A DNA stretch of 64,000 nucleotides from Alphaproteobacteria bacterium (GCA_965232515.1 CBDDPY010000002.1:6432001-6496000); one strand, 5' to 3'; counted from the stretch's first letter, positions 21,203-61,653 are shown. Notes: generated from the letters alone by a model not told the origin. Numbers and translations: made by a program.

Positions 21203-21223
21203 TTCGTCCAAGGTTCGTCCAAG
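21203..21223 (+). promoter_or_regulatory. T3SS-locus direct-repeat box, copy 1
   Basis: TTCGTCCAAG-G-TTCGTCCAAG; GTCC at 21206 and 21217. Confidence 0.65.
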
Positions 21224-21354
21224 TCGGCTGCTGGGCACGGCGGACGCCCATACCTAAGTCGGTGGCGTTCTGGCTTTGAACGTCCACACAGGCGCGCGTC
21301 GCGTGCCAGCATTGCGACGCGGCCAACACGGCCCATAGGTTAGGAAACGGAACC

Positions 21355-21783
21355 ATGACGGCATTCGATCGGTTCATTGCGGGCGCCAAACAGTCCGCCA
21401 GCAACATTGACATCGGGCGGCAGAACGCGTTGGCCCGGTCGGTGACGCCGCGGCCATAGCTCTAGGCCAGTATCCAAAGGATCGAATGCTGGTTTAGAAG
21501 CAAGAAATCTCGGGCAAGTTCGGCCGAGGGTACGGCTCCGCCAGGTTCCGTGCCCTCGGCCGTTGCATTAGTCGATGATGGGGGCAACGCCGGATCCCGG
21601 ATACAACGCGCGTCCGCTCCGGTCTTGATTGAACAGCGAGTGGAAATCATCCACGCGCATTCGCTCTCAATCCTCGGCGGAGCAGGCTTTCTCCGTGCTA
21701 TGGCCGCGGTGTCATCGGATGCCGTGGCTGCGGCAGGGACGACGCCATGTTCAACGGTATCGCCGAGGCGGACAACGGCCTAG
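21355..21783 (+). pseudogene. Probable decayed effector-like gene downstream of box 1
   Basis: AGGA RBS and ATG at 21355; reads MTAFDRFIAGAKQSASNIDIGRQNALARSVTPRP*L*ASIQRIECWFRSKK... The same frame stays open to 21783 after TAGs at 21457 and 21463. Confidence 0.35.
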
Positions 21784-22211
21784 CGAGAGACGTCGTGGGA
21801 CAGCCGGACGACATTCAGGTCGCCGCGCCGCTGGTAGGTTATTTCGTCAACAACGTTCCAGACAAGATCCAGGCCGAATCCGCCGGGCTCGGCGTAGCGG
21901 TCGGACGGCCGCGCGACGGGCTTCGTCGGATCGAACTCCAGCCCGGGATAGACAATCTGCGTAACGATCCGGCCCGGCTCGCAACCGACGTCCAAAACGA
22001 CAGCCGTTTCTGCTTCAACGGCGTGGCCATGTGCAATTGCGTTGGCGACAAGCTCCTCGGCCGCCAGCATCACATGCTTGCCCAGGGAGGCTTCGACATC
22101 GTTATCGGCGAGAAACCCTTCGATGACGTCAAGCATGGCGCCGATGACCGATAGATCGGGTGCAAACTCGATGGTCAATGCTGTGCCGTTTTTGAGTCTT
22201 TCGCTCTTCAT
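21780..22211 (-). CDS. RsbW/BtrW-like anti-sigma factor Ser kinase (HATPase_c_2)
   Basis: N-box EELVANAIAHG, FDP, G2 box GGFGL, C-terminal VDEITY...N. G1 box reads YPG instead of DxG. Confidence 0.85.
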   Translation of the reverse strand: MKSERLKNGTALTIEFAPDLSVIGAMLDVIEGFLADNDVEASLGKHVMLAAEELVANAIAHGHAVEAETAVVLDVGCEPGRIVTQIVYPGLEFDPTKPVARPSDRYAEPGGFGLDLVWNVVDEITYQRRGDLNVVRLSHDVSR

Positions 22212-22330
22212 GTCCAGCGATGCGCTACTCAAACCAGCTGCTCCATTCGCGCGCCGACGCTCGACAGCAGTCGTCGGCACTCATATGTCCTGCATAATGT
22301 ATTAAAGCATCGCCAGCGGGACGATAATCT

Positions 22331-22350
22331 CTGTCCGACATTCGTCCGAA
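22331..22350 (+). promoter_or_regulatory. T3SS-locus direct-repeat box, copy 2 (upstream of yscB-sctD operon)
   Basis: CTGTCCGACATTCGTCCGAA; GTCC at 22333 and 22344. Confidence 0.75.
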
Positions 22351-60126: not shown

Positions 60127-60136
60127 GATCGCTTTC

Positions 60137-60607
60137 TCAACCCCTCAGATAGCCATGAACGTCCGGGCGTGGACGTAACGGCCAAACCGCGCGGTTATTG
60201 GCTAGATCGCGCAGCGTTGAAATCTCCCGGCGGAGGTTGTCAGTCACCGCGAAGAAATTGCTGACCAGCGAAATCATGTCCACGCCGCCGGCTGTCGTTA
60301 TGTCGACCACGTAGCGATAGACGATCACTTCACCGCTTTCGTCCAAACTGACGGTACCGCCGCGCAGCCTTTCGTTGTCTCCGTTCAACCGCAGCAGCCC
60401 GGCCAGCATCGACGGATCGTCCTGATGATGGAGGAATCCGACAACCCCGCTCAGGGTAAACGCGCTGCCTGTCGGCGGTACGTTGATGACGCATTCACCG
60501 CCGCCTTCGCGCTCAAGCACGCACTCGCCATCCTTGTCGAGAGCGAAGCCGCCGTCGGCGCCCGCACTGAACGCTGCAAGCGCACCGTTCACGCGCTCAA
60601 TCGACAT
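60137..60607 (-). CDS. Class IA T3SS chaperone (CesT family)
   Basis: FALDKDGECVL and LLRLNGDNERLRGGTVSLDE...VSNF; GGAG RBS before ATG 60607. Confidence 0.87.
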   Translation of the reverse strand: MSIERVNGALAAFSAGADGGFALDKDGECVLEREGGGECVINVPPTGSAFTLSGVVGFLHHQDDPSMLAGLLRLNGDNERLRGGTVSLDESGEVIVYRYVVDITTAGGVDMISLVSNFFAVTDNLRREISTLRDLANNRAVWPLRPRPDVHGYLRG

Positions 60608-61544
60608 CGTGTTTTGCTCCCCATCCGCCGCGACCGACCGTGCTGGGCGATGCGTGCGGGCCGTCGTCCGGCGCTCGCTGCAAAAGCCAGACATTGCCGC
60701 AAACCGGGGCTCCGCCTTGCGTCCGCAGCACGGCATATCGCCATTCCACGATCGCAAAACCCGCAGATCGCGCGCACTCGTGAATGTACGAACTGGAATG
60801 GGCGTATCGGCCGTTCTTTTGCAGCGACCAGCCGTTGCCGCTGGTCGTTTCGACAGTGAAGGCAAAAAACCCGCTCGGCCGAAGCGCCTGCCAAACATCT
60901 GAGAAGAGCGTATCCAAATCGCCGAGATAGACCAGCACGTCCGACCCGATGCAAAGGTCGATCGTCCCGCGTTGCTGCCGAAGGACGTCGACAAAGTCGG
61001 CCTCTACCAGGCGGTCGTAGCACTGCTTTTGCGCCGCCAGCGCCAACATCTTAGGTGACAGGTCGACACCGATCAGCGTGCCGGCGATGGGCTTGAACAA
61101 GGGGCCGCAGATGCCCGTGCCGCAGCCGACATCGAGGATGACCGGCGCCGACGGCAACGTGCGCTCCGCGACAATGCCGATCAGAAGATTTGGCGCGCGG
61201 TACGACAAATCAATCATGAGGTGGCGCTCGAACTCGTCTGAGTAGTCGTCAAACAGCGCCTTCACATAGTGCGGCGACGCCCGCGTCGGCCGTCGCCCCA
61301 GCCGCGCCAGAAACAGGTGCATGTTGGCGCGAATGGCCGGCAGACAGCGACGAAACACCACGGCCAGTGCAGCCAGGACCAGAAACAGGTGGATCAGGCT
61401 CTGCGCATGCAAGGACAAGCTGGCTGTGTAGGAGGCCGCGACCATGCTCAAGCTGACGATCAGGATCGCGTCCCAGAACGCTGTGAGACATCGCCGCAAC
61501 GACGCCAATGCCTGCCACGGGCTGCTGGATGTGTTCTCGCTCAA
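60597..61544 (-). CDS. SAM-dependent methyltransferase (COG4976-like) with N-terminal TM helices
   Basis: YVKALFDDYSDEFERHL...LSYRAP, ILDVGCGTG, GVDLSPKML and DVLVYLGDL; overlaps the chaperone start. Confidence 0.82.
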   Translation of the reverse strand: MSENTSSSPWQALASLRRCLTAFWDAILIVSLSMVAASYTASLSLHAQSLIHLFLVLAALAVVFRRCLPAIRANMHLFLARLGRRPTRASPHYVKALFDDYSDEFERHLMIDLSYRAPNLLIGIVAERTLPSAPVILDVGCGTGICGPLFKPIAGTLIGVDLSPKMLALAAQKQCYDRLVEADFVDVLRQQRGTIDLCIGSDVLVYLGDLDTLFSDVWQALRPSGFFAFTVETTSGNGWSLQKNGRYAHSSSYIHECARSAGFAIVEWRYAVLRTQGGAPVCGNVWLLQRAPDDGPHASPSTVGRGGWGAKHDVD

Positions 61545-61634
61545 GATCGGCCTCGCTCGTCAGCGCCCTGCTCTCGGACACGCCAGTGCCAGGATTACGT
61601 CTGTCCAGAAGTATGCATATCGGTTCCGGAAATG

Positions 61635-61653
61635 ATGTCCGAGAAAAGTCCAA
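61635..61653 (+). promoter_or_regulatory. T3SS-locus direct-repeat box, copy 9 (inverted relative to the adjacent operon)
   Basis: ATGTCCGAGAAAAGTCCAA; GTCC at 61637 and 61648. Confidence 0.55.

Follow-up and report, generated by a model that had tools for sequence, protein, structure and literature searches.

A tandem GTCCG box virtually confined to one type III secretion island of an alphaproteobacterium, and a winged-helix/STAND protein as its predicted activator

The promoters of a type III secretion system (T3SS) island in an alphaproteobacterium very probably share a genuine cis-element of the T3SS regulon, a box of two direct repeats (GTCCG-N6-GTCCG) that precedes apparatus operons, chaperone cassettes and transporter genes at a fixed distance. 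The box was followed through a window of 64,000 nucleotides (GCA_965232515.1, CBDDPY010000002.1:6432001-6496000; G000:C2:6432001-6496000 in our numbering, G000 being the Alphaproteobacteria assembly of 7.39 Mb and 65.5% G+C that holds it) and through the stretch beyond the window end (L077), for which positions are given in window-equivalent numbering, and it was compared with a related metagenome locus (L101). Overall, the boxes are virtually confined to this one T3SS island. A protein of 773 amino acids (aa), encoded beside the secretin gene of the same island, is the predicted activator and probably binds them.

A rescan of the window for GTCC-N7-GTCC recovered exactly the nine positions listed in a preliminary description of this DNA and a tenth, unlisted match (21206+, 22333+, 26778-, 36772-, 36825+, 43649+, 46535+, 51494-, 51561+ and 61637+). 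The additional match, 26778-, is at the sctJ/sctK junction, and its spacer is rich in G+C; it scored below 7.5 bits in the matrix scan and is probably a chance match, in line with the background rate. None of 100 shuffled versions of the window reached ten matches (mean 3.85, sd 1.93, maximum 9). In the whole genome there are 211 matches, a rate of 1.83 per 64-kb bin, with 15 in the bin that overlaps the second half of the window. The stricter pattern GTCCR-N6-GTCCR occurs 94 times genome-wide, 15 of these within 21-89 kb. Intergenic DNA was defined with our own codon-usage gene caller, which gives rough calls (6,623 genes, 86.7% coding). By this measure, 13 intergenic copies fall in the 9,330 intergenic bases of the island compared to 15 in the remaining ~976 kb. 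The number expected in the island is 0.14 (Poisson P for at least 13 of 1.5e-21), and the enrichment is thus stronger than the rough chance estimate made earlier suggested. The enrichment is found at the N6 spacer alone: spacers N0-N5 and N7-N19 gave 0-2 island intergenic pairs apiece, and the neighbouring spacers counted in all DNA at 21-89 kb gave three (N4), none (N5), one (N7), two (N8) and one (N9). A weight-matrix scan of the genome revealed no site outside the island with two good half-sites at a promoter-like distance, and none of the 12 best intergenic hits outside the island, which were inspected individually, was convincing as a regulon member. Six more boxes, the secretin gene and the candidate regulator lie in the part of the island beyond the window end.

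Seven of the nine window boxes lie in sense orientation ahead of an operon or cassette, as had been described, at a measured 95-117 bp from the first base of the box to the start codon, and all nine are intergenic provided that the STAS gene starts at GTG 36691. Three of them precede the apparatus operons, whose genes were assigned with Pfam and, for the second, also NCBIfam. The box at 22333..22347 (+; GTCCGACATTCGTCC) lies 107 bp from the ATG of the operon 22440..28046 (+), which encodes CesT, SctD, two small open reading frames (ORFs), an HrpB1-like protein, SctI, SctJ, SctK and SctL. The box at 36772..36786 (-; GTCCGGTTTTCGTCC) lies 95 bp from GTG 36691 of the operon 29791..36691 (-), encoding a STAS anti-sigma-antagonist-like protein, the SctN ATPase and SctO, P, Q, R, S, T and U. 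Back to back with it, the box at 36825..36839 (+; GTCCGCCGAATGTCC) lies 117 bp from ATG 36942 of the operon 36942..43584 (+), which encodes SctW (HrpJ+TyeA), SycN-like and YscX-like proteins, a TPR chaperone, SctV and a SpoIIE/PP2C phosphatase. The T3SS gene set is complete when the window and the sequence beyond it are taken together (Pfam).

The other four sense boxes precede chaperone cassettes. The box at 43649..43663 (+; GTCCGAATTCGGTCC) is found 102 bp ahead of a CesT chaperone gene (43751-44254; 132 bp if the start is placed at 43781), which is followed by a gene for a 674-aa protein (44305-46329), and the box at 46535..46549 (+; GTCCGAACTTGGTCC) 96 bp ahead of a CesT gene (46631-47107) followed by one for a 743-aa protein (47151-49382). 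A second divergent region, at 51.5 kb, also carries two back-to-back boxes in opposite orientation, which confirms the arrangement described for both this region and that at 36.8 kb: the box at 51494..51508 (-; GTCCGAGAATGGTCC) lies 95 bp from a CesT gene (50940-51413, -) followed by a 333-aa ORF (49663-50664, -), and the box at 51561..51575 (+; GTCCAAGCATCGTCC) lies 102 bp from the gene of an 1876-aa protein (51663-57293), which is followed by its CesT gene (57341-57829). No Pfam family was found in the large cassette proteins. The 1876-aa protein (51663-57293, +), which has its own CesT chaperone gene after it, gave only a weak, sub-threshold Mac match and is the largest effector candidate of the island.

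Beyond the window end, a box at 66777 (-; ATCAG/GTCCG) lies 114 bp from a CesT gene followed by one for a ~600-aa protein, a box at 69418 (-; GTCCG/GTCAC) 123 bp from a CesT gene, and a box at 71735 (-) 99 bp from a MarC/NAAT transporter gene followed by a major facilitator superfamily (MFS) transporter gene. A triple box at 76680-76716 stands before a CesT gene and a gene for a 413-aa protein, and a box at 83973 (-; GTCCG/GTCAG) lies 129 bp from a 100-aa gene heading an operon that ends in a TPR chaperone and an SseC-like translocator. The same 100-aa gene is preceded by a more distant box at 84231 (-), 387 bp away, and a weaker site at 66865 (+) stands before an MFS gene. In total, 12 sense box-gene pairs were counted in G000, with the boxes 85-129 bp upstream of start codons, and the genes behind them comprise three apparatus operons, six CesT cassettes, the MarC/MFS operon and the operon ending in the SseC-like translocator.

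Aligning 13 sites gave an 11-bp unit, G-T-C-C-G(11/13)-A(10/13)-r-n-W(13/13)-t-S (consensus GTCCGArnWtS), that is, a core of 6-7 bp with an A/T position after it (unit position 9, where all 13 sites have W). The box consists of two such units in tandem, and of three in phase at one site (76680/76691/76702); the period is strictly 11 bp, and the units are direct repeats whose orientation follows the gene. A third in-phase unit was also considered at 22333 and rejected, as the CCGAAC and GTCC words there lie 9-10 and 17 bp past the second unit and not 11 or 22 bp. These features bear on two other explanations. One is that the boxes are bound by the island's Crp/Fnr-like protein, which is a second DNA-binding protein of the island and is syntenic in L101. 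However, Crp/Fnr dimers recognise inverted repeats, while the boxes are strictly direct repeats, once with three units, and take the orientation of the gene, and we give this explanation very little credence. The other is that the copies arose by chance or are relics of mobile or repeated elements with no regulatory role, to which one could refer the two copies without a gene behind them and the ~1.7 GTCC-N7-GTCC matches per 64 kb found elsewhere in the genome. When the copies were aligned on their cores, nothing was common outside the 15-22-bp box, which shows that they are not copies of a mobile repeat. Together with the ~90-fold intergenic enrichment at N6 only, the fixed orientation and start-codon distance, and the retention of the boxes in L101 amid diverged flanks, this leaves the chance or repeat explanation extremely improbable and, in practice, rules it out.

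In a further step, 17 promoter-proximal sites (12 from G000, 5 from L101) were aligned on the first G of the box. The pattern A-N3-T was most frequent 38 and 39 nt from this G (in 5 and 6 sites, respectively) and was present within the best 3-nt window, centred on 39, in 9 of the 17 sites, compared to a mean of 1.7 in other windows over offsets 18-94 (binomial P ~1e-5). The resulting -10-like element, (T/C)A-N3-T, lies ~22 bp downstream of the second unit, with examples such as TAGAAAT, TATAGAT, TAGGCT, TATGGAT, TACATCT (twice), CAATCT and CAAGAT. A scan for the sigma-70 consensus gave no match in the box-bearing intergenic regions and one match in 16 kb, inside sctV. If A-N3-T is the -10 hexamer, the two units would lie at about -49/-45 and -38/-34, the second in place of the -35 element. 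Such a layout would be expected for activator-dependent promoters.

The paired GTCC words could instead be part of an extracytoplasmic function (ECF)-type sigma promoter governed by partner switchers of the island, like BtrS in Bordetella. A complete partner-switching set is indeed present in the island: an RsbW/BtrW-like serine kinase (HATPase_c_2, E 5e-16; 21780..22280, -), for which no own box was found, the STAS protein (36332-36691, -) and the SpoIIE/PP2C phosphatase (41314-43584, +). In the Bordetella bsc locus, a Ysc-like T3SS driven by the ECF sigma factor BtrS is accompanied by such a set, the partner switchers BtrU/V/W; the present locus resembles it in the PP2C/STAS/RsbW-like kinase trio within a Ysc-like T3SS locus and in that the Achromobacter SctV (60%) is among the nearest. 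However, a -35/-10 pair would have a 16-17-bp spacer, which is at odds with half-sites that are identical and recur at 11 bp, in one case as three units in phase; no distinct -35 and -10 elements of the HrpL/BtrS type 16-17 bp apart were found, and the -10-like element is a separate one ~22 bp downstream. Moreover, no sigma-factor domain was detected in the island ORFs scanned with Pfam, a scan that passed over some small ORFs, and unlike in Bordetella a winged-helix box is apparently used instead. We therefore regard a sigma-factor origin of the paired words as most unlikely.

The boxes are also found in L101, half of a 33.6-kb metagenome contig whose encoded regulator is 75% identical to the G000 candidate over 773 residues and whose secretin is 69% identical. 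They stand at places orthologous to G000 boxes: a triple box precedes a CesT gene and a gene for a 425-aa protein, GTCCGGGCTTCGTCCGA lies 99 bp from the MarC gene (box 7095+, gene 7194-7880), GTCCGACAATCGTCA stands before a CesT gene, GTCCGAAAACCGTCCG lies 400 bp from the 100-aa gene, and one of two GTCAGGATTTCGTCAGG sites lies 117 bp from the CesT gene orthologous to that behind the G000 box at 66777. Pairwise alignment of three intergenic regions between G000 and L101 showed conservation of the box, the -10-like block and the ribosome-binding sites amid diverged surrounding DNA, and the footprints kept belong to the triple box, to the box before the MarC gene and to the more distant box of the 100-aa gene. 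The last of these, 84231 (-) in G000 and L101:8649 (+), is a strong conserved box, while the DNA between it and the 100-aa ORF is unconserved and holds no shared ORF, and the ORF listing gave no convincing small gene there; this stretch might act as a long leader or encode a small RNA.

The candidate activator (P0001; G000 C2 6503930-6506248, L077:7927-10248, window-equivalent 71927-74248, -) is encoded immediately downstream of the secretin gene and in the same direction, 8 kb past the window end and inside the same island. Pfam placed Trans_reg_C (PF00486) at residues 26-96 (E 4.1e-16) and AAA_16 at residues 314-502 (E 4.5e-23). In NCBIfam, the N-terminus matched HilA/EilA, CadC and PhoB models at E 1e-12 to 1e-10, all far under their cutoffs, and residues 120-743 matched 'TOMM kinase/cyclase fusion' proteins in their STAND part. 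With a profile built from 15 orthologs, a search of PDB sequences found CadC and PhoB DNA-binding domains (E 1e-10, PDB 1gxp among them) and, for residues ~130-295, the class III cyclases CyaB and Cya2 (CyaB E 2.6e-5). The AlphaFold2 model had a mean predicted local distance difference test score (pLDDT) of 80 and a predicted TM-score (pTM) of 0.69, with a pLDDT of ~76-92 in the winged helix. Using Foldseek, its C-terminal half was matched to Apaf-1, CED-4, Cdc6/Orc1, plant NLRs (resistosomes), MalT and Avs3, with top matches at E 1e-8 to 1e-9, and its middle domain (~130-297) to Cya2/CyaB with TM 0.62-0.65 on the target. The cyclase-like domain was missed by Pfam and by a single-sequence PDB search and was found by profile and fold only. 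The Pfam scan gave no receiver domain, no BTAD (PF03704) and no TPR match. These matches give the candidate three parts: a winged helix of the OmpR/PhoB/CadC type, a cyclase-like domain that has diverged from class III cyclases, and a STAND NTPase whose helical arm follows. At the first metal-binding Asp motif of cyclases the protein reads ...VLECRLD..., and the domain is probably non-catalytic.

The preliminary description had proposed that 11-bp direct repeats are bound by a winged-helix activator, OmpR- or TtsI-like and encoded outside the window. The first part is supported by the restriction of the enrichment to N6 and by the presence of a Trans_reg_C protein in the island. The second stands as far as the winged-helix candidate beside the secretin gene goes, but this candidate is no TtsI-type response regulator. 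It is the only winged-helix protein of the island and is kept together with the boxes in L101.

Several observations weigh against these interpretations. Two of the boxes have no gene behind them. The first, 21206..21220 (+; GTCCAAGGTTCGTCC), lies at the left island edge, where a gap of ~730 bp separates genes, and points towards the 3' end of the kinase gene 21780-22280 (-), and the ORF listing shows no convincing plus-strand gene in the next ~560 bp. The second, 61637..61651 (+; GTCCGAGAAAAGTCC), faces the 3' end of a minus-strand gene (61994-63610), again with no convincing plus-strand gene after it in the ORF listing; it lies 93 bp from the TTG start of a methyltransferase gene (60597-61544, -), in the opposite orientation. 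Searching the whole window with Rfam at gathering thresholds returned a tRNA only, and no RNA family behind the orphan boxes. The earlier claim that the boxes mark T3SS operons and cassettes is thus upheld for seven of the nine but not for 21206 and 61637. Its companion, that one activator serves apparatus and effector genes alike, agrees with boxes before both, a fixed distance and a -10-like element, but leaves the same two copies aside. The box at 84231 and its L101 counterpart are 387-400 bp from the next gene. The gene calls were home-made, and one of them, 21747-22154 (+), was wrong and was corrected by hand to the minus-strand kinase gene; the latter (21780-22280) lies on the strand opposite to the ORF picked by the caller, which is based on the G+C content of third codon positions (GC3). 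The weight matrix was trained on the same island sites that rank top in its scan. In the 345 bp upstream of the secretin-regulator operon, no box scored above 7.5 bits and no block is conserved between G000 and L101, so that the regulator gives no visible sign of belonging to its own regulon. L101 is a single relative and was retrieved via the regulator, so that the co-occurrence of regulator and boxes is partly by construction and only the presence of boxes there counts as an independent observation. Finally, at least 14 OmpR-family response regulators are encoded in the genome, each a possible binder, with the best 40% identical to TtsI.

This last point corresponds to another explanation, in which the boxes are real but are bound by a classical OmpR-family response regulator (TtsI/HrpG/SsrB-like) from elsewhere in the chromosome and the STAND protein does something else. 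We consider it rather unlikely, though not negligible. The 14 or more TtsI-like proteins, of which the best matches over 218 aa (C2:6817673-6818326), speak for it, as do the missing box of the STAND regulator's own operon and the GTCAG-N6-GTCAG variants of L101, which closely match positions 1-18 of the tts box as given in an excerpt of PMC3009519. However, these response regulators are all encoded outside the island, the best ~320 kb away; the boxes are nearly island-only, and an acquired island would more plausibly bring its own regulator; and the island's sole winged-helix protein is conserved with the boxes in L101. The proteins looked for in relatives were SctV and the STAND regulator, and neither was found in those searched.

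In the preferred interpretation, with the 773-aa protein as activator, the box would be the activator site for the promoters of a horizontally acquired T3SS island. The DNA-binding domain of PhoB binds 11-bp direct repeats as a head-to-tail dimer and replaces the -35 contact. Similarly, the activator would bind the two units head-to-tail at -49 to -34 and contact RNA polymerase in place of the -35 interaction. Since the box promoters have no sigma-70-type -35 element, they should be silent unless the activator is bound and recruits RNA polymerase. As the secretin-regulator operon has no box ahead of it, the regulator may be made independently of the boxes and activated post-translationally. 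By analogy with AfsR and MalT, the STAND module would lock the winged helix in an inactive state, from which a switch of ligand or nucleotide would release it for oligomerisation and tandem DNA binding. For AfsR, which joins an OmpR-type DNA-binding domain to NOD and TPR parts, an excerpt of PMC10936776 reports that NOD and TPR inhibit until ATP binds, and that in the structure neighbouring SARP domains occupy two 11-bp direct repeats, which overlap the -35 element. A more far-reaching proposal, which we hold to be evenly poised, is that the winged-helix/cyclase-like/STAND fusion represents a new class of T3SS master regulator, which would sense its signal via the degenerate cyclase or the STAND module and, via the 11-bp-phased GTCCG repeats, directly switch on the whole injectisome, at least six chaperone-effector cassettes and several transporters, in a Ysc/Bordetella-like T3SS that retains its partner switchers but lacks an ECF sigma factor.

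Among known systems, the tts box/TtsI pair of rhizobia is similar in having a regulon-wide box at apparatus and effector genes, a GTC-containing pentamer repeated 11 bp on, and an OmpR-type winged helix as binder (presumed here). The tts box consensus spans 30 bp (tcGTCAGcTtntcGacAGctagnccnnntA) and has GTCAG and GACAG 11 bp apart, according to the same excerpt of PMC3009519; two L101 sites read tcGTCAGGATTTCGTCAGGT. The secretin operon here has no box, just as rhcC1 has no tts box according to part of the text of PMC3973906. In contrast, the G000 core is GTCCG, and GTCAG is limited to this pair of L101 sites and a few half-sites (83973, 66777). The tts box also has a 3' half that is absent here, and its repeats are one helical turn closer to the -10 element than those of the present box are to the -10-like element. 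TtsI is a response regulator of 226 aa; the candidate lacks a receiver domain and gave only 27% identity over 94 aa (E 0.16) to the TtsI of NGR234 in BLASTP. Unlike rhizobial Rhc systems, the T3SS described here has the Ysc-type accessory genes YscX, SycN, TyeA and YscO. The likeness to the tts box drawn in the preliminary description is thus one of geometry (GTCAG/GACAG 11 bp apart), while the 30-bp consensus and the receiver domain are missing; to judge by these comparisons, the box is not a tts box and the candidate is not TtsI.

AfsR, a large Streptomyces SARP (OmpR-type domain, BTAD, NOD and TPR), resembles the candidate in that an N-terminal OmpR-type domain is fused to a STAND/NOD ATPase with a helical arm. 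Its afs box likewise consists of two 11-bp direct repeats; they overlap the -35 of promoters whose core elements are poor, as far as the excerpt of PMC10936776 describes it. However, the candidate has a cyclase-like domain where BTAD sits in AfsR, with no BTAD detected, it comes from another phylum, and its targets would be a secretion system and not antibiotic genes; compared to the afs box (-40 to -19), the box here lies ~10 bp further upstream of the -10 element. By its domain composition, the candidate is not a SARP.

With regard to PhoB, the profile search places the winged helix of the candidate nearest to the DNA-binding domains of CadC and PhoB (E ~1e-10). Like the pho box, in its generally known sequence and unit layout, the box is built of 11-bp units in which a conserved core of 6-7 bp precedes an A/T-rich position, and it is predicted to take the place of the -35 element, as the pho box does. 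PhoB is switched by phosphorylation of its receiver, whereas the candidate has a fused STAND module. Like the candidate, the T3SS master activator HilA of Salmonella SPI-1 (EilA/YgeH) carries an OmpR/ToxR-type winged helix at its N-terminus and lacks a receiver domain; the HilA box is a direct repeat near -45. The HilA/EilA model NF009037 was the best named NCBIfam match of the candidate's winged helix (E 1.4e-12, residues 3-100), at 46.8 bits compared to a cutoff of 589. HilA has neither a cyclase-like nor an AAA_16 domain, and by these matches the candidate is not a HilA-family member. To our knowledge, T3SS master regulators are AraC-type proteins, response regulators, ECF sigmas, enhancer-binding proteins or HilA. 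No description of a winged-helix-STAND T3SS regulator or of a GTCCG box was found in open-access full text, although the subscription literature could hold one. By analogy, the promoter design would be of the known pho-box/tts-box/afs-box type, from which the sequence GTCCG and the regulator architecture differ, and the likeness to the tts and afs boxes suggests repeated independent use of a tandem winged helix at -35.

The box provides a map of the whole putative T3SS regulon, with three apparatus operons, the SseC-like translocator operon and six or more chaperone cassettes, and the cassette partner proteins (333 to 1876 aa), which have no recognisable family, are prime effector candidates. 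It also ties the MarC/MFS transporters to secretion, a link otherwise unlikely to be drawn, and leads to a regulator with a predicted winged-helix, cyclase-like and STAND architecture on an uncharacterised T3SS. If the proposed function is true, the box would serve directly to locate effectors in an alphaproteobacterial lineage that is uncharacterised and probably host-associated.

By its distribution, the island appears to be horizontally acquired and not ancestral, because orthologs of SctV and the regulator are absent from the family and order genomes searched. In 32 other genomes of the family, which make up the whole order in the data used, SctV gave 34-38% matches only, the level of the second FHIPEP copy of G000 itself, which is presumably the flagellar FlhA. 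No ortholog of the regulator was detected at E<=1e-100 in these 32 genomes and none in 400 genomes sampled class-wide, while 40 relatives gave partial paralog matches only. The nearest SctV proteins (57-62%) come from uncultured Pseudomonadota and Gammaproteobacteria, Achromobacter (60%), an Oxalobacteraceae metagenome-assembled genome (MAG) and Belnapia. In the five genomes with the nearest SctV, the regulator was not found, and their sctV loci hold 0-2 isolated GTCC-N7-GTCC matches and no cluster. A tblastn search of plasmids with the winged helix returned generic winged-helix/TPR proteins only (<=45% identity). Protein databases hold ~15 full-length orthologs of the regulator with 75% to 35% identity, 727-796 aa and the same Pfam domains, the named ones being from Alphaproteobacteria (Acuticoccus, Minwuiales and Hyphomicrobiales MAGs); apart from that of L101, ~14 of them are 35-53% identical. 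Of 30 loci from a metagenome scan, L101 alone holds a true ortholog, and the others match in the winged helix only or are paralogs.

The island extends over ~64 kb, from ~21 kb in the window to ~85 kb, that is, ~21 kb past the window end. Its right end was placed near 85 kb because GC3 climbs there from 0.72-0.83 to 0.87-0.92. On the left side, a tRNA-Lys (CTT) gene (15123-15198, +) lies 6 kb from the first box, and an O-methyltransferase gene and an AcrB/HlyD-type efflux pair lie between the two. These left-side genes and the T3SS genes have a GC3 of 0.72-0.85 compared to 0.84-0.92 in flanking housekeeping genes, and the tRNA-Lys gene and the GC3 pattern are consistent with a tRNA-associated genomic island. 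Within the apparatus cluster, an amino-acid permease gene (28146-29759, +; AA_permease_2, E 6.5e-48) is located between sctL and sctU. The transporter genes behind the box at 71735 are the MarC/NAAT gene at L077:6964-7650 (-), equivalent to 70964-71650, and the gene of a sugar-type MFS transporter at L077:5520-6872 (-), equivalent to 69520-70872; the regulon thus seems to include small-molecule transporters beside secretion genes. The Crp/Fnr-like regulator gene (cNMP_binding and HTH_Crp_2) is found at 63544 to ~64266 (+), with its syntenic counterpart at L101:15079-15789 (-), and, taken with the cyclase-like domain of the candidate activator, hints at cyclic-nucleotide signalling around the T3SS.

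Four polyA-selected RNA runs under the same organism label gave 0 reads each on 36001-56000 of the window, which is no test of expression. Window positions 43000-52000 were fully covered by DNA-type runs of one organism label, and 26% of their words were found under a second label. The polyA-selected RNA libraries under the label suggest that it denotes a eukaryote with which the bacterium is associated.

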